From NCBI GenBank assembly GCA_046290225.1, contig JBKAGE010000075.1:224001-288000 (forward strand): a stretch of 64,000 nt of DNA, read 5' to 3'. The stretch comes from Bradymonadia bacterium. GTDB lineage: Bacteria; Myxococcota_A; Bradymonadia; UBA7976; UBA1532. Within the stretch, counting starts at the first letter, position 1, and each line of letters opens with the position of its first letter. Shown piece by piece: positions 5,876 through 19,204 of this stretch. The position numbers and the translations under genes are program-made. Below the pieces are notes generated by a model. That model was not told the DNA's origin. It did no database searches and saw nothing but the letters and a program-made list of their open reading frames with translations.

Positions 5876-8800
5876 ATGGCGCCACCGAGACCCGAGCCGT
5901 TTGTCCCGGCAGGGGTGGTGGGCCCGGGTCCCGACGAGCAGGCGGTGGCGGCCTGGTTGAGGGCCCTCGCCCGTGAAGCCGCTCCAGAGGCCTGGGGGCC
6001 TCAGAGTACACCTGCACCGCCGACGGCCCTGGGGCCCGTCGAGCTGAGTCCGGAGGCCGAGGGGGCCGCGGGCACCCTCAACCCCTACGCTGAGGCGTTC
6101 TACCGCGACGCGATGGTGGCAGTGGCCAAGCCCACCGTGGGCATCGAGTCTCGCCACGCAGAGCTGTACGCCCTGCTCAGCAGAAACATCCAGCGCTACC
6201 TCACGTACTCGCGCATGCGCCTGAGCTACATCTACGAGGTGTTGCGCGGTCGGGATCGGGTCACCTTCTCGGTGATCCCGTTCTTGCTGCACGTGAACAT
6301 GCCGACCCTACCGGGGTACGTCACCGCCACCCGGGACGATCCTGCCCCCCATGGCATCAGCGGCTTCGATCTCAACGACACCATCCGACTCGCCGTGGGA
6401 GAGCTGTTCCCCGAGGTCTCCCGGCGCATGCCTGCTTTCTTGAAGCCGGTGATCAAGGCGCTGCTGGTCATGGGCAGCGTGGGCACCATCGGTCACACCG
6501 GCTCGAGCGACATCGACTACTGGGTGGTCATCGACGAGTCACAGCTCAAGCCCGGTGATCTCGAGCGCCTGCAGCAGAAGATCCGCGGCGTGGAGCAGTG
6601 GGCCAACCGCCGTGGTCTCGAGGTGCACTTCTTCATCGTCGACACCGAGCGGGCCCGGCGAAACGACTTCGGCCTCGCCGTGGACGACGCCGAGTCCTCG
6701 GGGAGCGCCCAAGGGCAGCTGCTCAAAGAAGAGTTCTATCGCACCGCCCTCTTCATCCAGGGGCAGCTGCCTTTCTGGTGGGTGGTGCCCATCGGGGTGG
6801 CGCAGAAAGAATATGACCGCCTCGAGAAACGCATCGCCGACAAGCCGCTGTCACCTGCGGTGGGTTTCGTCGATCTGGGCAACGTAGGGCAGCTCGATCG
6901 ACGTGAGTTCTTCGGCGCCGCGCTATGGCAGATCAACAAGGCCCTGAAGAGCCCCTTCAAGAGCCTGCTCAAGATGGCCTTGCTCGCCCGCTACATGGAG
7001 GACGATCACCCCGAGCTGCTGTGTGACACGCTCAAGCGTCGGGTCTTCGAGGGGGAGCGGTCACCACAGTACACCGATCCGTACGTGCTGCTCTTCGACG
7101 CCATCACCGAGCACTTCGCCCGACAGGGTGACTGGCGGGCGTTCTGTCTGGTGCAGACCTGCTTCTATCTCAAGGTGGGCCTCAAGCTCAGCCGCGAGGT
7201 CCCCGAGAAGAGCCGGTTCATCCAGCGGTTCAAGGTCATGCGGGCCTACGTGCTGCGGTGGGGGTGGGACAAGGCCTTGCTGAGCGATCTCGACGGCATC
7301 GACAAGTGGAGCGCCGAGCGGGTGGACCACCTCGGGCTGTCGATCCGGGCCTTCATGCTGGGCATCTATCGCGCCCTCATCGAGCGGATGGAGGCCGACG
7401 CCCACACGCCGGCCATCGAGCGGGAAGACGTCACCTTGCTCGGTCGACGCCTCTTCGCCTGTTTCGCCGACGAGTCGGGCAAGATTCATCACCTCTACAC
7501 CTACTTCCTCAAAGAGCTGGTGCCCGAGGAGCGGATCACCGTGCTCGAGGTGCCCGACAACACCCACATCTGCCGGTGGGAGGTACACCGCCGTCTCGAT
7601 CGGGACGGTCTCGTGGGCCGCGGTGAGCCAGTACGGGCCGGATCTGATCTGGCAGAGATCGCCGCCTGGCTGTGCTTCAACGGTCTCTTTGGCCGGGGAT
7701 CGACGGTGAGCCTGCTCACCCGCCACAGCCGCATCACCAACAACGACTTCCACACCATGCTCACCCGCTTCGAGGGTCACTTCGCGCGGCCTGATCCCTT
7801 CAGCCTGCCCACCCGGCAGCTGCTTGAGGGTCGCCGCGTGGTGGGGTCGATGCTGGTCATCAACTTCGACGAGCGATCTTTGAAGTGGGCCCAGGAAGAG
7901 CAGGGAGAGACGGTGTACATCCCTGCGAACTGGGATGTGCTCAACTACGGCCGCAAGCGAGAGAGTCTCGTGCGCCATGTGGCCCTCATCACCCTCAACA
8001 GCTGGGGGGAGATGTTCTGTGTGCGTCACGACGGCACCCACGCCCTCACCAATGCGCTGAGCGATCTCTTCGGCCGCATGTCCGATCTCCCGCGGGCCAC
8101 CCGCCCCGAGATTTTGGTGCCTCAAGGCCACAAAATGCAGGCGGTGAAGAGCCGCCTCGCGCGCTTGATGGGCACGATGGAGCAGATGTGGATCGACGAT
8201 GTCGAGGATCGTGTCGAGCGGGTCTTCGTCTACGAGTCCGCGGGCAAATTCCAGATCTTCAGGCGGCGCAGCCAGCAGGGCTGGGTGATCAACGCCGAGG
8301 ATCTCTCAGGTGTGGTGCGGCAGCTCGGGCGCTCGGGTCCGCAGAAGCTGGAGCCAGTGATCGATCACCTCTCGGTGCCCCTCGGCGATCTGCGTACGCT
8401 CGTAGAAAAGCGCAGCCGGGATCGTGAGAGCTTGATCTATCTGGCCTGGCGTCGCGGTGAGCGCGAGTCGGTGATCTACACCTACGACGAGCAGCACAAG
8501 TTCCACCTGACGCGTTGTAGCCACCGTGCCCTCGAAGACACCCTCGCCGATCTGGTGCGCAAGGCCACCTGGCACCTCAAGGGTCGAGTACAAGACGCCC
8601 GTGGCTTGTGGCGGGCGGTCCGCGTGTACGAGCTCAGAGATGGCAGGGTGCTCGATCAACCGACCACCTTGAGAGACGACACCGGCCGCGCCTTTCAGAG
8701 CATGGTGAAGAATCAGCCCCAGGGATCACAGCTGTGGCTCAAGGGTGATCTGCGTCAGGGCCGCATGGGCGTCAGCCTCAAATGGGGTCGGGATGTCTTC

Positions 8801-9031
8801 AGCCCCAGGCGGCTCGGCTCGGCCTTCGTCTACTCGGTGGTGCGTCACATCCTCAAAGATCACACCCTCTACGAGACGGCCCCCTTCCTTCTCAAGGGCT
8901 CCGACGTACGTATGCCCTGGGGTGAGGCGGGCCTGGTGCAGCATCTGAGGCTGATGGAGATCTACCAACGCCGAATCCACCGCGAACTGTCGGCCTACCA
9001 GGGCACCCGCGGCCCCCAGCGCAGGAGCTGA
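5876..9031 (+). CDS. cyaA: Class I adenylate cyclase (CyaA-type), 1051 aa
   Basis: PFLLHVN...PGY, MGSVGTIGHTGSSDIDYWV (nucleotidyltransferase DxD motif), EVHFF, SSGSAQ..LLKEEFYRTA, FFGAALWQINKALKSPFKS, CFYLKV and NSWGE all match class I adenylate cyclases. Confidence 0.88.
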   Translation: MAPPRPEPFVPAGVVGPGPDEQAVAAWLRALAREAAPEAWGPQSTPAPPTALGPVELSPEAEGAAGTLNPYAEAFYRDAMVAVAKPTVGIESRHAELYALLSRNIQRYLTYSRMRLSYIYEVLRGRDRVTFSVIPFLLHVNMPTLPGYVTATRDDPAPHGISGFDLNDTIRLAVGELFPEVSRRMPAFLKPVIKALLVMGSVGTIGHTGSSDIDYWVVIDESQLKPGDLERLQQKIRGVEQWANRRGLEVHFFIVDTERARRNDFGLAVDDAESSGSAQGQLLKEEFYRTALFIQGQLPFWWVVPIGVAQKEYDRLEKRIADKPLSPAVGFVDLGNVGQLDRREFFGAALWQINKALKSPFKSLLKMALLARYMEDDHPELLCDTLKRRVFEGERSPQYTDPYVLLFDAITEHFARQGDWRAFCLVQTCFYLKVGLKLSREVPEKSRFIQRFKVMRAYVLRWGWDKALLSDLDGIDKWSAERVDHLGLSIRAFMLGIYRALIERMEADAHTPAIEREDVTLLGRRLFACFADESGKIHHLYTYFLKELVPEERITVLEVPDNTHICRWEVHRRLDRDGLVGRGEPVRAGSDLAEIAAWLCFNGLFGRGSTVSLLTRHSRITNNDFHTMLTRFEGHFARPDPFSLPTRQLLEGRRVVGSMLVINFDERSLKWAQEEQGETVYIPANWDVLNYGRKRESLVRHVALITLNSWGEMFCVRHDGTHALTNALSDLFGRMSDLPRATRPEILVPQGHKMQAVKSRLARLMGTMEQMWIDDVEDRVERVFVYESAGKFQIFRRRSQQGWVINAEDLSGVVRQLGRSGPQKLEPVIDHLSVPLGDLRTLVEKRSRDRESLIYLAWRRGERESVIYTYDEQHKFHLTRCSHRALEDTLADLVRKATWHLKGRVQDARGLWRAVRVYELRDGRVLDQPTTLRDDTGRAFQSMVKNQPQGSQLWLKGDLRQGRMGVSLKWGRDVFSPRRLGSAFVYSVVRHILKDHTLYETAPFLLKGSDVRMPWGEAGLVQHLRLMEIYQRRIHRELSAYQGTRGPQRRS

Positions 9032-9957: not shown

Positions 9958-10461
9958 ATGTACGCCAAAAGCGGATATGGACAGAGCACCCACCAGCGAT
10001 ATCGGGCCGTCAAGGTGCAGACTGCGTCACCGGCGCAGGTCATGCTCATGCTGTTCGATGGCGCCATTCGTTTTGCACGCACTGCCCGGCAGAAGATCGA
10101 AGAAAAGGATCTCGCGGGGAAGGGCACCTACATCGGGAAGGTGCAGGCCATCGTCACCGAGCTGATGAGCAGCCTCGACTTCACCTTGAATCCCGAGCTG
10201 TGCTCTCAGCTTCAGCAGCTCTACGTCTACATGATCGAGCGCCTCACCGCGGCGAACATCAAGGTGGACGTCGTGCCCCTCGACGAGGTCATCAGTCTGC
10301 TCACCGATCTCCGGGACACGAACAAGAAAGCTCTGGAGAGCCTGCCTCAAGATCCCACCCTCAAGGCCCGGGACAAGGCGCCGGCGGCTGCACGCCCCGT
10401 GAACCCTGTGCGTCCGGTGCCCACGGGCGGCCCACGCTTCGGCGGTGGCCCCAAGGCATGA
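9958..10461 (+). CDS. fliS: Flagellin chaperone FliS
   Basis: Y..VKVQTASPAQVMLMLFDGAIRF...KVQAIVTELMSSLD...LQQLYVYM..RLTAAN. Confidence 0.95.
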   Translation: MYAKSGYGQSTHQRYRAVKVQTASPAQVMLMLFDGAIRFARTARQKIEEKDLAGKGTYIGKVQAIVTELMSSLDFTLNPELCSQLQQLYVYMIERLTAANIKVDVVPLDEVISLLTDLRDTNKKALESLPQDPTLKARDKAPAAARPVNPVRPVPTGGPRFGGGPKA

Positions 10462-10838
10462 GCGCACCACACACCATCACTGATCACATCGAGGTCCTCG
10501 ACGGCCTGATCCGGCTGTATGAGGTGCACCTGGGTCAGTTTCATCGCGATCCCAAGCTCGACTGGTCAGCCTTTGGCGAGGCACGCCAGACCATCATCGA
10601 CGCCTGGCGTCTGATGACCCCTCTCACCGAGTTACTGCCCGACGAGGCTCAGCAGGCCCGGATCAGAGAGCGCATGGAGCGTCTCGAGGCGTTGAACGTG
10701 TCTGTGGTGGAGGCTGCCGAGAGCAGCCGCGCGGATTTAAATCGCCGTTTGGGCGCTTTGCGGACGGGCCGGAAGGGGCTCAAGGGCTACCAACGCCACT
10801 TGGGTCCGGCGCGGCGATCACAGCTCGGCCGGGGCTGA
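10458..10838 (+). CDS. FliT/FlgN-like helical flagellar chaperone (putative)
   Basis: 126-aa helical ORF coupled to fliS by ATGA overlap; C-terminal RTGRKGLKGY motif is typical of FliT-like proteins. Confidence 0.6.
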   Translation: MSAPHTITDHIEVLDGLIRLYEVHLGQFHRDPKLDWSAFGEARQTIIDAWRLMTPLTELLPDEAQQARIRERMERLEALNVSVVEAAESSRADLNRRLGALRTGRKGLKGYQRHLGPARRSQLGRG

Positions 10839-10851
10839 GCGGCTGGCGGCT

Positions 10852-11262
10852 TGAGCGGACGGCCGTGCCTTTGGCACCGCCTGTAGCGGACGGTCATCGC
10901 CTGGCGGCGACAGCCTGTAGCGGACGCCTCGCCTTCGGCGAGAGCTGTAGCGGACGCTCATTTGCCTACGGCAAATTCCCTGTAGCTTTTTTGAAGATCA
11001 GTTGAGGGGGGCGTGTGTAGATTCATCCTCCGCAGACGCTGTTGGCCCCTGACGCACCAGTTCCGGCGTAAGCCCCTACCTGGGTTGAGAAACCCACCAG
11101 CAACACCATAACTCTCTGAAAAAGCTACAGCTCAGCCTGCCGAAGGCAGACTCGGCGTCCGCTACAGCTCTGTAAGGCGAAGCCGCAGCAGGCGTCCGCT
11201 ACAGGCGGCCCGAAGGGCGGCCGTCCGCTACAGATCGCGCCGCAGGCGGGATCGTCCGCTCA
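10852..11262. repeat. Symmetric inverted array of CTGTAGCGGACG repeats with hairpin spacers (REP/REPIN- or MITE-like element)
   Basis: Left arm: TGAGCGGACG 10852, CTGTAGCGGACG at 10881, 10915 and 10945, then CTGTAGC+T6 at 10980. Right arm mirrors it: A5+GCTACAG at 11119, CGTCCGCTACAG at 11156, 11193 and 11222, then CGTCCGCTCA 11253-11262. All eight spacers (17-25 nt) differ and each contains a hairpin. Confidence 0.92.
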
Positions 11263-13494
11263 TCAGCCGCCACCGGAGAGCGACGACAGCGCCGAGAGCT
11301 GCTGACTCACGTAATCCCCGAGGGCCTGCAACTCCGCGAGCTGCACCTCGAGCCCCACGAATTGTCGGCGTAGTCGCTCTTCCACACGGGAGACACGCTC
11401 GTTCTGCACGTCGATCTGCTCTTCGAGGCGGGTCACCTGAGAGCGGATGCCGTCAGTGCGAGAGCCGATCACGTCATCGGTGAGGCTGTCGATGAGGTCT
11501 GGCAGCGTCTCGCCGAGGCCGTCGGACACGCGCACCCTGCCGAGGATGCCGGTTTGAGAGTCATCAGGGATCTCGATGAGCATGCCTTCGGAGCCGAAGC
11601 CTCGAGCGCCACGGAACACATTGCCGTCGATGACCTCTGCCTGGATCCCGCCGATGCGGCCCGAGAGATCAGTCCCTGTGGCTTCGCTCTCGACGTTGCC
11701 GATGCCCGAGTTCGCGCCAGCGGCTTGATCGGAGATCACCGTGAAGGTCTGCTCCGAGCCGTACAATGTGGTGCGGATGTTGATTCGACCATCTGATACG
11801 AAGGCCGCCATGCCCACATTGTTGTCGGAGAAGGCCTGGTTGAGCCGACCAACCTGAGTGTCCACATCGTCACCGGCGAGCAAGTTCACGTCGAAGGTGC
11901 GGATGCCATCTTGGAAGTTGAAGCTCAAGGTCTCGTCAGCGCCGATGACCTGGGCGTCCGCGCCGGCGGTGAACGACGCTCGGGTACGAGCAGTCTCCAC
12001 TTCGACGGTGTATTCCCCCGGCTGAGTCCTTGAGTTCCGTGAGCGGAAGGTGAAGTCGCCGGTGATCACCTCACCGACGCCGGTGAGCAGTCGTTCCACG
12101 GCTTTCGAGTCGGAGTTGAGGGCTGAGCTGAGGGTGCCGCTGTTGAGCGACAACAGACCGGTCTCGCTGTTGGACTCGATGCCGAGCTCCGAGAGGGCGG
12201 AGATGGTGGACCCGTTGAGCCCGGGCACCCGGCCGAGGGTGAGGGCCTTCAAACGTCTCTGCACATTGCGCACGGCGGAGTCGCCGTTGAGCGCCGGGGC
12301 CGCGAGGCCGCTCGCCGGATCGTAGTCGAACTGGCCGTTGATGAAGCCCACGACGGAGTTGTAGGCCCCGATGAAGCTCGTGAGCGAGCCCTCTACATCG
12401 CCGATTTGATCATCGATGCTCAGGGTCACTGTCTTGCTCGGATCCACGTCGGCGATGGAGAAGGTCATGCCTTCGAAGACGTCGGTGAAGCTATTGCTGC
12501 CGTTGGTGATCGTGATGCCGTTGATCTCCACCATGGCGTCTTTCGCCTCTTGCAACACGGGATCGACTGCGTCGATGCGGAAGGTGTCGCCGGTGGTGAG
12601 GCTGCCGTTGTCGGTGAAGTTGATCTCCACGCCGTCGGCGAGGGCGATGGGGCCACCGCTGGTGACTTCGAAGCCCGAGCCACCGTTGTCGTCGAAGGTG
12701 AGCCCTCCATCTGTGGAGAACCGATAGCGGGCGGCGCCGGCGCCGCCTGCTGCGGTGCCGTCTTGGATGATCTCCACCACGAAGTTGGCGTTCCCTGTGC
12801 CCGTGTACGTGCCAGAAGCAGTGGCTGCGCCGAGGTAGGCGGCGTTGTTGGTGGTGTCGGCCGTCGCTGCCTCGATTTGCTTGTTGGCGAAGTCGAGGGT
12901 GGTGTCGTTCTGCACCACCTTCACCTCGTTATCGGTGCCGCCCTTCACCCCCGACAAGATCAGTCGAAAGGGGTTGGTGGCGGTGCCGTCGTTCACGATC
13001 TCTGCCCGCACATCGCTCGAGGCGTCGTTGATGGCGTCAGCGAGCTGACTCAGAGTCGTCGATTCGTTGACGTCGATCTCGATCTCGGAGCCGTCGCCGA
13101 TCTGGAAGCTGAAGGTGCCCGCAGCGGCGGCCACCGCCGTGGCGTTGTCGTCGACGAAGCCCTGGGCGCCGAGGCGATTGGTGGTGGCTTTCTGCAGCGC
13201 TTTCACCGTGTAGGTGCCGTTGCTCGCCTTGTCGGTGGCGTTCACCGTCACCAGGCTGCTGTCGGAGCTCGTCGCCGTCTTGCTGCCGAAGAGGCTGGAG
13301 GAGTTCAGGTCCCGGGCGGCGGAGCGCAAGCTGCCCAGCCGTCCGCTGAGATCGCTGTACGAGGCGTTTCTCTGCTCAGCGTCGACGATCTTTTGCTGCA
13401 AGCTGGTGATCGGCGCCCGCTCGAGGGTGAGCAACTGGTTGATGATGCCGTCTACGTCCAGGCCACTGGCCAGGCCGCTGATGCTGATGGACAT
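11263..13494 (-). CDS. fliD: Flagellar filament cap FliD (HAP2), 743 aa with internal insertions
   Basis: MSISISGLASGLDVDGIINQLLTLER N-terminus, AKDAMVEING..SNSFTDVFEG, FIGAYNSV, and LRRQFVGLE C-terminus. Start set at ATG 13494 after AGGAGG. Confidence 0.94.
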   Translation of the reverse strand: MSISISGLASGLDVDGIINQLLTLERAPITSLQQKIVDAEQRNASYSDLSGRLGSLRSAARDLNSSSLFGSKTATSSDSSLVTVNATDKASNGTYTVKALQKATTNRLGAQGFVDDNATAVAAAAGTFSFQIGDGSEIEIDVNESTTLSQLADAINDASSDVRAEIVNDGTATNPFRLILSGVKGGTDNEVKVVQNDTTLDFANKQIEAATADTTNNAAYLGAATASGTYTGTGNANFVVEIIQDGTAAGGAGAARYRFSTDGGLTFDDNGGSGFEVTSGGPIALADGVEINFTDNGSLTTGDTFRIDAVDPVLQEAKDAMVEINGITITNGSNSFTDVFEGMTFSIADVDPSKTVTLSIDDQIGDVEGSLTSFIGAYNSVVGFINGQFDYDPASGLAAPALNGDSAVRNVQRRLKALTLGRVPGLNGSTISALSELGIESNSETGLLSLNSGTLSSALNSDSKAVERLLTGVGEVITGDFTFRSRNSRTQPGEYTVEVETARTRASFTAGADAQVIGADETLSFNFQDGIRTFDVNLLAGDDVDTQVGRLNQAFSDNNVGMAAFVSDGRINIRTTLYGSEQTFTVISDQAAGANSGIGNVESEATGTDLSGRIGGIQAEVIDGNVFRGARGFGSEGMLIEIPDDSQTGILGRVRVSDGLGETLPDLIDSLTDDVIGSRTDGIRSQVTRLEEQIDVQNERVSRVEERLRRQFVGLEVQLAELQALGDYVSQQLSALSSLSGGG

Positions 13495-14168: not shown

Positions 14169-15593
14169 TTACAGCAGTGACAACGCGATCTGAGACGACT
14201 GGTTCGACTGCGCCAGGATCGAGGTCCCAGCCTGCTGCAGGATCTGCGTACGGGTGAGGTCCGCGGTCTCCTGCGCGAAGTCGGCGTCCTGAATCCGGCT
14301 ACGTGCTGCAGCGAGGTTTTCAGAGGTGGCCGACAAGTTGTTGATCGTCGATTCGAGGCGGTTCTGCGTCGCACCGAGTGAAGATCGGGTCTCAGACAAA
14401 TAACTGAGCGCTTGATCCGCGATATCGATGGCTCTGTTGGCGCCATCTCTCGAGGTGATGTCGATGGTACTCACCGACGACGACGAGTTCTTGCCCAACA
14501 CGATGTTGCCTGCACCACCACCGAATCCGATGGCGCTTGACCCGTTCGCCGTGAGGGTCGCCGAGATGTTCTCGGACGATTGCAGCGTGACCGTACCTTG
14601 ACTCACCCCTGCGCCGAGACCCGTTCGGGCAGCCCCGGCCCCGGTGGCGGTCACCTCGATGTTTCGACCATCCACGGCGGTGAGCACCACGTTGTTACTT
14701 GAGTCCAGCGAGGCGATGACGCCCGTACTGTCCGCGTAGCTGTTGATGGTGTCCACCAGGGTGCCGTCGGCGTCGTCTGCCGATACCGTGACCCCCGTGA
14801 TGTCCTGGCCGTTGATGGTGATGAAGTTCGTGGCGTCGAGCGCACCACCGGCGACGTCGGCGTTGCCGTCATCGACGGTGGAGTTGGCGATGGCGGTGAC
14901 GTTGGTGAACTCCGAGGAGTCGTTGATGGCTGCAGCCTTGGCGATGGCCGAGCTGGTGGCCAGCGAGGTCGACACCGTGTCGTCCACGGCGTTCGTCGCC
15001 CGGATCGACACGTTGTTGATCACCACGTCGTTCGCCGCGATGGCCTGCGTACCGGCGGTGGAGCCGGTCTCTCGGGCGCTGGCGCCGAGGGCGGTGGACC
15101 GTGCGTCGCTGATGTTCACCGAGAGCGACTGGTTGGAATTGGCCCCGATTTGGAACCGCGCTCCGTTGAAGCTGCCGTCGAGGATGTTCTGGTTGTTGAA
15201 CGTGGTGTTGTTGCCGATGCGGTCCAGCTCGCTCACGAGCTGATCCACCTCGTCTTGCAGGTTCTGACGGTCGGCATCGGTGTTGGTATCGTTTGCCGCC
15301 TGCACGGCGAGCTCACGCATCCGCTGCACGATGTCGGTGGATTCCTGCAGGGCACCTTCAGCAGTCTGCACGAGACTGATGCCGTCGTTGGCGTTTCGCA
15401 CCGCCTGGTTGAGGCCGCGGACCTGAGCGGTCATGCGGTTCGAGATGGCCAGACCGGCGGCGTCGTCTTTGGCGCTGTTGATGCGCAGACCGCTGGACAA
15501 CCGCTCGAACGAGGTGCTCAGCTTCTTGCTGGTCTTGTTGAGAGTGTTCTGAGCGCCCAGGGATCGAGCGTTCGTGTTGACGAAAAGACCCAT
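14169..15593 (-). CDS. fliC: Flagellin 1 (474 aa)
   Basis: MGLFVNTN...ERLSSGLRINSAKDDAAGLAI...QTAEGAL...SRIQDADFAQE...QQAGTSILAQSN. Start re-assigned to ATG 15593. Confidence 0.97.
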   Translation of the reverse strand: MGLFVNTNARSLGAQNTLNKTSKKLSTSFERLSSGLRINSAKDDAAGLAISNRMTAQVRGLNQAVRNANDGISLVQTAEGALQESTDIVQRMRELAVQAANDTNTDADRQNLQDEVDQLVSELDRIGNNTTFNNQNILDGSFNGARFQIGANSNQSLSVNISDARSTALGASARETGSTAGTQAIAANDVVINNVSIRATNAVDDTVSTSLATSSAIAKAAAINDSSEFTNVTAIANSTVDDGNADVAGGALDATNFITINGQDITGVTVSADDADGTLVDTINSYADSTGVIASLDSSNNVVLTAVDGRNIEVTATGAGAARTGLGAGVSQGTVTLQSSENISATLTANGSSAIGFGGGAGNIVLGKNSSSSVSTIDITSRDGANRAIDIADQALSYLSETRSSLGATQNRLESTINNLSATSENLAAARSRIQDADFAQETADLTRTQILQQAGTSILAQSNQSSQIALSLL

Positions 15594-15596
15594 GTG

Positions 15597-15636
15597 ATCC
15601 TCCTTGGATACAAAAATCGGGCAGACTTCCGCGTCT
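15597..15636 (-). promoter_or_regulatory. CsrA-type GGA hairpins at flagellin 1 leader/RBS
   Basis: mRNA sense ATCC-AAGGA-GGAT (15597-15609) overlaps the SD; a second hairpin AGAC-GCGGAA-GTCT lies at 15623-15636. Confidence 0.6.
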
Positions 15637-15815
15637 CCCCGGCGATCCCGCCCGACCCCTCGAGCGTTCACGCAACCGTTTCAGGCTGACCAGGGACCCT
15701 CCCGAATCAGCCCTCACGAGCTGTGGTCTCCAACACTGCCGACCCATGGCAGGCTCAACGCAGTCGACCCAAAAATGACCGCGTCAGAGCACGTGGAGTC
15801 CACCTCTCAACGCTG

Positions 15816-15842
15816 ACATCGGCGGTCTCAAACGGGAGTTGA
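15816..15842 (-). promoter_or_regulatory. Sigma28-like promoter for flagellin 1
   Basis: Minus strand TCAAC-N14-GCCGATGT preceded by a T-tract. Confidence 0.7.
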
Positions 15843-16081
15843 GAAAAAAAAGAAGAAGGCGCCATTTTGGGGTCGCCACGACCCGGGTGGGTCATGACGG
15901 ATACGCCTCGAATTGGGCGGGGTCGACAACAGACAAAAAAGGGGAGATCTCGGGGCAGGCGCGCGGAGCCGCAGGCGCGGCAGCGGTGCAGTCGCCTCAG
16001 GCGACAAACGGGTGTCGAGTGGGGTGTTGAATACGTAGCGAGCTACGCCGCCACCGCGCGCCTCGGTTGAATCCGACCCGA

Positions 16082-17509
16082 TTAACCGAGGAGGTTCAGG
16101 GCGATGTTCGGCCCCTGGTTGGCCTGAGCGAGAATCGAGGTGCTGGCCTGCTGCAGGATCTGGTTTCGCGTCATCATCGCCGTCTCAGAGGCGAAGTCGG
16201 CGTCTTGAATCCGGCTTCGAGAGGCGGCGAGGTTCTGACTGGTGGCCGACATGTTGTTGATGGCCGATTCCATCCGGTTCATGAAGGCGCCGAGCCCGGA
16301 TCTCTGTTTCGACACTTGATCGATGGCCACATCGAGGATGTCGATGGCCGTATTGGCCCCATCTCTCGAGGTGATGTCCACCGCGCTCGTGGCGAAGTTG
16401 CTGTTGACCCCGAAGACCACGTTGCCCGCACCACCGCCGAAGCCGATGGCCGTCGAGCCGTTCGCCGTGAGGGTCATGTCGATGTTCGCTTCCGATTGCA
16501 ACGTGATGCTGCCTTGGGTGACCCCGGCGGCGAGGCCCGTTCGGGCTGCCCCGGCCCCTGTAGCCGTCACTTCGATGTTTCGACCATCATTGGCCGTGAG
16601 CACCACGTTGTTGCTGTCGTCGAGAGACGCCACCACCCCCGTCGTGTCGGTATATGCGTTGATCGCATCCACCAGGGTGCTGTCGGCGTCATCTGCCGCC
16701 ACCGTGATCCCGGTGATGTTCTGACCGTTGATGGTGATGAAGTTCGTGGCGTCGAGCACACCACCGGCGACGTCGGCGTTGCCGCTGTCCACCGAGGAGT
16801 TGACGATGGCCTTCACATTGGTGAACTCCGAGGAGTCGTTGATGGCTGAAGCCTTGGCGATGGCCGAGCTGGTGGCCAGCGAGGTCGACACCGTGTCGTC
16901 CACGGCGTTCGTCGCCCGGATCGACACGTTGTTGATCACCACGTCGTTCGCCGCGATGGCCTGCGTACCGGTGGCCACGCCGTCGTTGCGTGACTGCTTC
17001 CCCAGAGCGGTGGAGCGGGCGTCGGAGATGTTCAGATCGACGGTCTGACGTGAGTTCGATCCCGAGTGCACCCGCATCCCGATGAAGCTGCCATCGAGGA
17101 TGTTCCGGTTGTTGAACGTGGTGTTGTTGCCGATGCGGTCCAGCTCGCTCACGAGCTGATCCACCTCGTCCTGCAGGTTCTGACGGTCTGCAGTGGTGTT
17201 GGTGTCGTTTGCCGCCTGCACAGCGAGCTCACGCATTCGCTGCAAGATCGAGCCGGTTTCGTCCAGGGCACCCTCTGCGGTCTGGGCCAGAGAGATGCCG
17301 TCGTTCGAGTTTCGGACTGCCTGGTTCAGTCCTCGGACCTGTGAGGTCATTCGGTTGGCGATGGCCAGGCCAGCGGCGTCGTCTTTGGCGCTGTTGATGC
17401 GCATACCGCTGGAGAGACGTTCAAAAGATCGGCTGAGGCCGTTGCTGCTCTTGCGAAGCTGCCGTTGTGCGTTCAGCGAAGAGGCGTTGGTGTTGACGTA
17501 AAGACCCAT
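16082..17509 (-). CDS. fliC: Flagellin 2 (475 aa)
   Basis: Canonical flagellin N- and C-terminal motifs; close paralogue of flagellin 1. Confidence 0.97.
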   Translation of the reverse strand: MGLYVNTNASSLNAQRQLRKSSNGLSRSFERLSSGMRINSAKDDAAGLAIANRMTSQVRGLNQAVRNSNDGISLAQTAEGALDETGSILQRMRELAVQAANDTNTTADRQNLQDEVDQLVSELDRIGNNTTFNNRNILDGSFIGMRVHSGSNSRQTVDLNISDARSTALGKQSRNDGVATGTQAIAANDVVINNVSIRATNAVDDTVSTSLATSSAIAKASAINDSSEFTNVKAIVNSSVDSGNADVAGGVLDATNFITINGQNITGITVAADDADSTLVDAINAYTDTTGVVASLDDSNNVVLTANDGRNIEVTATGAGAARTGLAAGVTQGSITLQSEANIDMTLTANGSTAIGFGGGAGNVVFGVNSNFATSAVDITSRDGANTAIDILDVAIDQVSKQRSGLGAFMNRMESAINNMSATSQNLAASRSRIQDADFASETAMMTRNQILQQASTSILAQANQGPNIALNLLG

Positions 17510-17511
17510 GA

Positions 17512-17524
17512 ATCACTCCTTGAT
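17512..17524 (-). promoter_or_regulatory. CsrA-type GGA hairpin over flagellin 2 RBS
   Basis: mRNA sense ATCA-AGGAG-TGAT, ending 2 nt before the ATG. Confidence 0.55.
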
Positions 17525-17773
17525 GGGCATGAAGGAGACGAACCTTGTCTCCTCGTTGGCGGAAACTGTCAGGGCCAGCGGCCTCCGCCCCGGTCCGACG
17601 GGTCCCCACGTGGGGGGCGTCGCTTCGGGGAAGGGGGGCTGTCTCGCCCGGAGTCCGCCGGATGGCCTCGACTCAGGGCGGGGAATCTGCTCCGGTACGT
17701 CCGGCGCCGTCGTCGGCTGCCCGGGCCCGGGGGTGTCTTACGGGGGGCGCGCATCTTCATGTGTTCGACTCCC

Positions 17774-19204
17774 TTAGCCGCCGATGAGGGAGAGGGCGGC
17801 CTGGGGTGCCTGGTTGGCCTGCGCCAGAATCGAGGTGCTCGCCTGCTGGAGGATCTGGTTCCGAGTCATCATGGCCGACTCAGAGGCGAAGTCGGCGTCC
17901 ATGATGCGGCTGCGAGAAGACGACAGGTTCTCGGAGATGGCCGACAGGTTGGCGATGGTGCTCTCGAACCTGTTCTGCAGGGCGCCGAGGCTGGACCGGG
18001 TGCTGCTCACCTGCTCCAGGGCGCGGTCCACCACGTCGATGGTGCGGTTCGCTGCCTCTCGAGTGAGCACATTGGTCGTCGACACCGAGTTCGCCGTGTT
18101 CACCCCGATGATGGAGGCGGCGGCGAAACCGACGCGGTCTGTGTTGTTTCCGGTGATGGAGACCTGGTTGTCACTGCTCAGCTCAAGCTCGGCCAGCGTC
18201 ACCGACGCCCCCGCTGCACCACCGTTCAAGCCCGTGATGTTGCCGCCGTTGCCTACGGTGATGACCTCGATGTTGCGTCCATCCGAGGCTGTGAGTTGCA
18301 GCTGGCTGTTCTGGTCGAGGGAGGCCACGACCCCCGTCTGGTCAGTGACGGCGTTGATTTGTTGGATCAAGGTGTCGCTGGCGTCGTCGGCGTCGAGGGT
18401 GAAGCCGGTGACGATGACCCCGTTGAGCTGGATGTAGTTGTTGGCGTCCAAGGTGCCGCCGGCCACCGCGGTGCCGGAGCTGATCTGAGTCTCCAGGGCT
18501 CGAGCGGTGACGCCGGTGAAGGCGGAGCTGTCGTTGATGGCGCTGGCCTTGGCGATGGCGGAGCTGGTGGCCAGCGAGGTGGACACCGTGTCGTCAGAGG
18601 CCGCCGTGGCGCGGATGCTGGTGGTGTTGATGACCAGATCGTTGGCGGCGAGGGTCTGACTGGACACCGCGTTGGTCTGGGCCACCGCGGCGCGACCCAG
18701 AGCGGTGGCTCGGGAGTCGTTGATGCTCATGCGCAGCCCCTGGCGGCTGTTGGAGCCGAGCTGCACGAAGTTGTCGATGAAGGTGCCGTCGAGGATGTTC
18801 TGGTTGTTGAACGTGGTGGTGTCCCCGATGCGGTTCAGTTCGGAGATGAGCTGCTGGATCTCGTCGTCGATGCTCTGCCGGTCGGTGGCAGTGTTCACGT
18901 CGGAGGCCGCCTGGATGGAGAGCTCGCGCATCCGCTGCAAGATGTTGGTGGTCTCGTCGAGGGCGCCTTCAGCGGTCTGAGCGAGGCTGATGGCGTCGTT
19001 GGTGTTCCGGATCGCCTGGTTCATGCCCCGAATCTGGGCGGTCATCCGGGTGCTGATCGACATACCGGCGGCGTCGTCTTTGGCGCTGTTGATGCGCAGA
19101 CCGCTGGACAACCGCTCGAAGGACCGGTTCAGGCCGTTGGTGCTCTTGAGAAGGCGGCGCTGACCATTGAGGGATGCAACGTTGGTGTTGACGTAGAGAC
19201 CCAT
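17774..19204 (-). CDS. fliC: Flagellin 3 (476 aa)
   Basis: Canonical flagellin motifs (ERLSSGLRINSAKDDAAG, SRIMDADFASE); more diverged central region. Confidence 0.97.
   Translation of the reverse strand: MGLYVNTNVASLNGQRRLLKSTNGLNRSFERLSSGLRINSAKDDAAGMSISTRMTAQIRGMNQAIRNTNDAISLAQTAEGALDETTNILQRMRELSIQAASDVNTATDRQSIDDEIQQLISELNRIGDTTTFNNQNILDGTFIDNFVQLGSNSRQGLRMSINDSRATALGRAAVAQTNAVSSQTLAANDLVINTTSIRATAASDDTVSTSLATSSAIAKASAINDSSAFTGVTARALETQISSGTAVAGGTLDANNYIQLNGVIVTGFTLDADDASDTLIQQINAVTDQTGVVASLDQNSQLQLTASDGRNIEVITVGNGGNITGLNGGAAGASVTLAELELSSDNQVSITGNNTDRVGFAAASIIGVNTANSVSTTNVLTREAANRTIDVVDRALEQVSSTRSSLGALQNRFESTIANLSAISENLSSSRSRIMDADFASESAMMTRNQILQQASTSILAQANQAPQAALSLIGG

Follow-up and report, generated by a model that had tools for sequence, protein, structure and literature searches.

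A lineage-restricted family of hairpin-armed, REP/BIME-like repeats in a Bradymonadia genome and its possible relation to four-helix-bundle gene cassettes

REP-like repeats fill many bacterial genomes without the transposase thought to spread them. The mark of REP and REPIN sequences, according to the available portions of four papers, is GT[AG]G located 5' at the foot of a hairpin or 1–2 nt from it (PMC3733652, PMC3116915, PMC6006769, PMC8266576). Such systems also comprise a cognate RAYT gene with the repeat on its flanks, and TnpA-REP cleaves at CT/CA. Four-helix-bundle proteins of the TIGR02436 type are likewise widespread and have no assigned function. In ORF-bearing 23S rRNA intervening sequences (S23p; accessible text of PMC4990558), which lie within rRNA genes and are excised by RNase III, terminal inverted repeats close a stem around the four-helix ORF; free-standing genes of this kind are TIGR02436/PF05635. 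DGR Avd is described, in the available part of PMC6182149, as binding RNA and assisting the reverse transcriptase, while alone it yields no cDNA. Mini-hairpins with GNA and GNNA loops are exceptionally stable in DNA and far less so in RNA, as far as the accessible part of PMC13037366 goes.

The window analyzed here is a stretch of 64,000 nt from a Bradymonadia assembly (G000; 8.58 Mb, 83 contigs, 64% GC, 99.4% complete). It contains a 411-bp element (10852–11262, without assigned strand), a full copy of the repeat family hereafter termed family A, in the gap between two convergent genes: a FliT-like gene located after fliS (10461–10838, plus strand; weak Pfam FliT match, E 0.0015, below the cut-off) and fliD (11263–13494, minus strand). 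The first-pass annotation had described two inverted arms, each with a terminal 10-mer, three exact 12-mers and an inner half-copy adjoining a T- or A-run, and this architecture was recovered with the 12-mers at the positions reported. The left terminus (10852–10861, plus strand; conserved part GA-GCGGACG, the base before it being variable) is followed by the slot-1 module (10862–10880, minus strand; class A, AAA loop), a 12-mer (10881–10892, plus strand), the slot-2 module (10893–10914, minus strand; class A, GCCA loop), a 12-mer (10915–10926, plus strand), the slot-3 module (10927–10944, minus strand; class B, GAA loop), a 12-mer (10945–10956, plus strand), the slot-4 module (10957–10979, minus strand; class C-L, GTA loop, the loop base alone varying among 24 copies) and the inner half-repeat (10980–10986, plus strand), after which a T-run occupies 10987–10992. 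The non-coding directional core, 137 nt here (10987–11123, plus strand), contains three motifs of fixed spacing at about 11024–11037, 11065–11074 (a GNNA mini-hairpin) and 11104–11113. The right arm consists of the inner half-repeat (11124–11130, minus strand), the slot-4 module (11131–11155, plus strand; class C-R, GAA loop), a 12-mer (11156–11167, minus strand), the slot-3 module (11168–11192, plus strand; class B, nested hairpin, GAA loop), a 12-mer (11193–11204, minus strand), the slot-2 module (11205–11221, plus strand; class A, GAA loop), a 12-mer (11222–11233, minus strand), the slot-1 module (11234–11252, plus strand; class A, GCA loop) and the right terminus (11253–11262, minus strand), which abuts the fliD stop codon (11263–11265) directly.

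Six 12-mers in the window compare with 0.33 expected, and none of 100 shuffles reached six. All eight spacers fold, with the hairpins and loops listed earlier, and the calculated fold of the element is a rod with side hairpins (z against shuffles of −10.3 and −9.7 for DNA and −10.3 for RNA). The copy begins with TG and finishes with CA. No credible Rfam match to it was found, and the unique foreign spacers in one orientation that characterize CRISPR arrays are not seen, since the spacers recur genome-wide. Two further features of the window were noted: three tandem ORFs of 475–500 aa upstream of fliD (14169–19204, minus strand), two of which, those whose translations were inspected, are close flagellin-like paralogues; and a 1051-aa ORF between a FliW-like gene and fliS (5876–9031), which resembles class I adenylate cyclase when the translation is judged by eye.

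The 75 parsed arms yielded 263 modules, representing 85 sequences and about 19 stem families. The slots are ordered: in the 54 four-slot arms, slot 4 is occupied by class C (or one variant), slot 3 always by class B, and slots 1–2 by class A with one exception. Folding was found for 261 modules, 251 of them closed by C-G; the loops are GNA (166), GNNA (43), AAA (35) and other (17), the first three types making up 244 of 261 when read on the strand named in the first-pass annotation. AAA loops close similarly to GNA and GNNA loops in DNA. The spacers had been presented as variable; their sequences do differ and all fold, but they are not free, being alleles of a genome-wide library of the module families. 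One slot-4 module is identical at 22 of 23 positions across 24 copies, the middle loop base varying (T in 9, G in 8, A in 7), and another has a basal G-C pair in 16 copies but A-T in 8, these variants being alleles and not independent events. The data support the earlier view that hairpin structure is kept while stems vary, with loops of the DNA type. Longer modules consist of shorter ones plus a further mini-hairpin, which suggests growth by fold-back synthesis. Every 12-mer carries GTAG, located in the arm units 6 nt from the hairpin foot; collapsed copies form GTAG-to-CTAC ‘double-foot’ hairpins, and in these and in the sister family B described below GTAG lies at or near the foot.

The element is not single-copy: a pattern search of the assembly revealed 197 exact 12-mers, which form 45 clusters. 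A looser census, drawn from 62 clusters of which two are attributable to chance, gave 60 family-A loci. Of these, 28 are full and 10 are half copies, 2 lack the core and measure about 200 bp, and 20 are collapsed (mini) palindromes with junctions at short words common to both sides. The idea of a dedicated cruciform signal at a single locus is ruled out because of this copy number. Family A is extragenic, multi-copy and lineage-restricted, and the window copy and the other loci lie outside rRNA genes. The family pattern occurs 185 times in this genome and in none of 27 genomes of the same taxonomic family; in 112 genomes of the class, match counts were at control level and the family was not found. 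Comparison of the element with 40 relatives gave a single 40-bp match (E 5e-4) in one of them. A search for related arrays across a collection of genome contigs returned five matches, all to unrelated tandem repeats; a metagenome scan returned at least 120, those listed being chance-like, and a viral scan 26 chance-like ones, with no BLAST match to the element in either. A related strain is present in a marine metagenome run (gene pieces about 94–99% alike), in which arm pieces have a summed depth of 169–189 versus 2–4 for the flanking genes. No empty site of the same species was seen, and no contig bridging one was found in the marine run, where cover is thin.

The gap between fliT and fliD measures 424 bp here versus 4–63 bp in 11 and 309 bp in one of the 12 measurable relatives (17 relatives have fliD). 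The window copy is an insertion into this gap without target duplication, and the description of a non-autonomous inserted element holds for a family of 60 loci. Target duplications of 2–9 bp were absent from 41 two-ended copies under five end definitions. Family-A termini are degenerate, with no fixed terminal inverted repeat: the terminal 10-mers are present as described, but their terminal T is not fixed, TGA preceding 54 of 109 listed ends, in 21 of these 54 as the neighboring gene's stop codon. The four bases preceding the ends are A, G, T and T in 99, 89, 59 and 60 cases, respectively, in the same list, of whose entries about ten are inner repeats mistaken for ends and one is a chance match; for 36 of the 109 entries, the distance to a stop codon is between −1 and +3 nt. 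Full copies are located between convergent genes in 16 of 28 cases versus a background of 19% (p 7e-6, with crude gene calls). The orientation of the core shows no replichore polarity (15 versus 13), and outside the termini the host flanks are no more symmetric, in inverted sense, than shuffles. At the window copy itself, the flanks 10843–10851 and 11263–11272 form an 8-bp inverted repeat, as if the copy had been inserted into the loop of a small pre-existing hairpin, which is not general across copies.

The modules are reshuffled between copies. All 24 parsed full copies (27 aligned) have distinct module combinations, and the ten closest core pairs, 92–95% identical, have at most one third of their modules in common. 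Module sharing is weakly predicted by core identity, and so is not fully independent of it: the Mantel rho is 0.16 (p 0.018) when modules are compared exactly and 0.12 (p 0.09) when they are compared by family. Four-gamete violations within cores rise with distance, from 0.43 for sites no more than 5 nt apart to 0.72 for those more than 40 nt apart. No two full copies have an exact string of more than 113 nt in common, making assembly chimeras unlikely. Slot-1 modules are identical on the left and right in 6 of 19 copies, compared with 0.064 between copies (p 9e-4). For slots 2 and 3 the tendency, if any, is towards lower similarity inside a copy (p 0.06 and 0.03, respectively); we read these two patterns as end-to-end copying in a folded intermediate combined with loss of over-perfect palindromes.

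Family-A cores measure 128–141 nt (nominally 135 nt), are directional and have a mean identity of 79%; the spacing of their three motifs is near-fixed, being 38 nt in 22 of 26 cores for one interval and mostly 32 nt for the other. A core peptide was considered and rejected, no codon-position or synonymous bias being seen in any frame. A sister family, B, is represented by 56 loci, 36 of them full, of about 520 bp (for example, G000:C9:13008-13476). Its arms differ from those of family A, are headed by GTAG and carry exchangeable GNA hairpins, all 23 parsed combinations being distinct; conservation of its outer tails fades over about 40 nt, and the tails are more alike within than between copies, which we read as copying between a copy's two ends. 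The B-core profile matches all 27 A cores at 7–28 bits, compared with at most 1.9 bits in 270 shuffles, and by this profile comparison the two cores are homologous. One A/B hybrid (G000:C82:48337-48770) combines an A left arm, the common core and a B right arm. A MITE of 160–175 bp with terminal inverted repeats of about 20 bp is present in two genomic copies (G000:C78:372744-372905 and G000:C34:360961-361136), once within a family-A core and once within a family-B core. A third hairpin family, C, with 32 apex-motif matches, was also noted (G000:C20:15440-15700, C34:562250-562500 and C43:16700-16880); at C34 and C43 it is adjoined by family-A half arms, as hybrids or neighbors.

The arms of family B lead to a gene. 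The assembly contains two four-helix-bundle genes, both inside matched arms. At G000:C77:107024-107840 a frameshifted TIGR02436 gene lies between two B arms, replacing the core; the second is enclosed by arms of a third family. No gene was found between the arms of any A copy of this assembly, so the link to four-helix genes, found in place of one to a RAYT, runs through family B. Core profiles gave no match at 91 four-helix loci, including the C77 cassette, and the core is therefore not a visible remnant of that gene. Class-wide, four-helix-bundle genes are present in 48 of 113 genomes. Among the 89 loci examined, 81 had both flanks, and inverted arms were found at 57 of these versus 13 for a direct-repeat control. 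Arrays of a repeat plus variable C-GNA-G hairpins with the polarity of the window element occur at 5 of the 81 loci, one in genome G070 and four in G062, representing two other genera, and at none with the opposite polarity; their repeat is not GTAG-based. In G062 such arrays are present at 4 of 10 four-helix loci versus 4 of 360 background windows, the background not being gene-centered. The same genome has a gene-less two-arm form, the same arm type alone beside other host genes, and inverted repeat-plus-GNA-hairpin arms around a thioesterase gene (L347, G062:C106:39100-40700), which suggests that arms can enclose host genes.

The four-helix proteins match the PDB pentamer XCC0516, and we take the TIGR02436 proteins to be akin to DGR Avd; for the free-standing ones we know of no nuclease or polymerase activity. 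As a separate observation, a promoter-like motif (AAC, 16–17 nt, CGWA), which presumably resembles ECF-sigma promoters, precedes four-helix-bundle genes at 17 of 88 loci (for example, L233, L260, L265, L292 and L299), whereas shuffled sequences gave 1.45 (at most 5) and the antisense strand 4. Two similar words, 28–29 nt apart, are present in the A and B cores, which lack the AAC/CGWA motif itself.

Our preferred reading, to which we assign a probability of about one half, is that family A is a gene-less, REP/BIME-like and likely empty form of a hairpin-armed four-helix-bundle cassette, copied as folded single-stranded DNA and moved in trans. Its basis is the core shared with family B, the A/B hybrid, the B arms around a TIGR02436 gene and the same arm design in two other genera. 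Copies would move as single-stranded DNA folded into a rod, with stable C-GNA-G mini-hairpins capping its 3' arm. The modules may be reshuffled by template switching or in-register gene conversion, both between arms and between copies, with slot-specific flanks preserving their order, and slippage across the palindrome would give the collapsed forms. The mover would act in trans, probably with the four-helix-bundle protein as mover or helper together with a host or lost nuclease, and copy survival would be biased to 3' gaps between convergent genes. Family A may in this way spread without the transposase known for similar repeats. Against this reading stand the lack of a gene in all A copies, the lack of core matches at four-helix loci, the frameshift in the C77 gene, the occurrence of G062 arms around a non-four-helix gene or alone, the partial dependence of module sharing on core identity and the failure to see a same-species empty site; a REP origin would also explain the GTAG tags and the double-foot forms of collapsed copies just as well.

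The main rival, which is compatible with the cassette reading and which we consider possible though doubtful, is a REPIN/BIME population of a lost or unassembled RAYT (TnpA-REP), the capture of four-helix genes by arms being incidental. The presence of GTAG in every repeat, the inverted doublet, the absence of target duplication, the intergenic location and the excess of convergent gaps are as this rival predicts, and the collapsed A forms, together with a mini B copy, are ‘double-foot’ hairpins like subclass 2.4 in the available part of PMC6006769. This mini copy, a 33-bp double-foot palindrome (G000:C79:179915), was noted between two convergent type XIII retron reverse transcriptase genes (L231 and L232, G000:C79:178175-181442). 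The REP/RAYT partner proposed in the first-pass annotation is not supported so far: searches of the assembly with Pfam and NCBIfam models and with a profile derived from relatives yielded no Y1, RAYT or Y2 enzyme, and the arm GTAG stands 6 nt off the hairpin foot. Four TnpB-only IS200/IS605-type elements (L205–L208; G000:C35:142955-144112, C35:40094-41233, C64:12607-12810 and C45:37185-38411) are present and TnpA was not found in the assembly, which makes missing Y1 enzymes plausible; the ends of these elements are unrelated to family A. Y1 genes occur in 9 of the 27 family genomes, but at the 17 of 20 relatives' Y1 loci inspected the flanks lack such hairpin arrays, and the arrays of G062 and G070, being based on a repeat other than GTAG, also speak against this rival. 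Other candidate movers gave no better link: a single GIY-YIG match does not adjoin a family-A copy, none of eight tyrosine recombinase matches lies within 50 kb of one, and no transposase-like gene was reached from the arms among the arm clusters and half arms examined. Family A might still match one of the 24 GTAG families of PMC3733652.

An extension of the cassette reading, unlikely as a whole, is a RAYT-independent mobile class in which an Avd-like pentamer would recognize C-GNA-G arrays and drive fold-back copying of single-stranded DNA. Combinatorial assembly from several donors, end-onto-end copying and arms exchangeable between families would be its properties, and its arms could enclose the helper gene or a host gene, or else an empty core under spacing constraint.

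A host-maintained 3'-end signal (a bidirectional terminator, an RNase III/RNA-stability element or an ssDNA/cruciform mark), spread passively by recombination without a mover, is improbable. The strong bias to convergent gaps, the listed ends close to stop codons, the stable RNA rod and the T-runs at the inner arm ends would suit such a function. The loops, however, are of the type favored in DNA and not in RNA, by the available part of PMC13037366; a terminator scan gave 1 site versus 0.4 expected; a conserved RNA fold of the core was not supported (14 of 27 cores, covariation term −0.75); and the family was not found in the 112 class genomes, where the fliT–fliD gap is short. Retro-copying of a structured RNA, in which an enzyme of the retron or DGR type would act with an Avd-like helper and template switching would give the mosaics, is very unlikely: the pentamer match, two reverse transcriptases in the assembly and ends abutting stop codons are in line with it, but both enzymes belong to type XIII retrons, not to a DGR, and the regions upstream of them resemble none of the copies, adenine is the least mutated base in A cores, the reverse of adenine-specific variation, and the loops are of the DNA type. 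The least probable explanation, a MITE of a DDE transposase with several binding sites per end (IS21/Tn7-like ends), is suggested by the inverted arms with repeated 12-mers and the TG...CA of the window copy and is already largely refuted by the lack of target duplication, the degenerate termini, the absence of any two full copies that are alike and the finding that no transposase-like family recurs beside copies, where no gene family beyond ordinary paralogues does so.

The genome supplies a defined substrate: about 60 natural variants that reveal free and fixed positions, a sister family that has kept a gene between its arms, and parallel cases from two other genera. With these, both RAYT-less spread and the function of TIGR02436 proteins become testable by a simple binding and cleavage assay. 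A literature search, conducted mostly among non-subscription sources, listed no work describing mini-hairpin arms that are shuffled and ordered by slot, or four-helix cassettes with repeat arms.

Among known systems, REP/BIME/REPIN sequences with RAYT, as presented in the available parts of PMC3733652, PMC3116915, PMC6006769 and PMC8266576, resemble family A in being intergenic, multi-copy, GTAG-tagged and arranged as an inverted doublet that gives a long hairpin, and in their mosaic build, lack of target duplication, double-foot central deletions and bias to convergent gaps. Unlike them, family A has arms with four hairpin slots that draw on a module library, every parsed full copy being different; its arm GTAG is not at the hairpin foot and no RAYT was found in the assembly; and it counts about 60 copies, not hundreds, with a core that recurs between the different arms of another family. 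Bacterial MITEs and Neisseria intergenic mosaic elements are similarly short, non-coding, inverted at the ends, lineage-restricted and mosaic (PMC3733652 in its accessible part, with details from general knowledge), whereas family A has no target duplication and no fixed terminal bases, and no parent IS was found beside its copies. S23p-like features are represented here by family B at C77, by the inverted arms at the class loci and by the sporadic distribution; family A differs in its location outside rRNA, its lack of an ORF and its arms branched by DNA mini-hairpins. The phage G4 origin, ssiA and the N4 vRNAP promoters, in the available part of PMC13037366, share with it GNA/GNNA loops that are closed by C-G, leave the middle base free and occur on one strand only. 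In family A such loops form arrays of interchangeable modules within a dispersed repeat, a natural conservation of DNA mini-hairpin geometry at genome scale.
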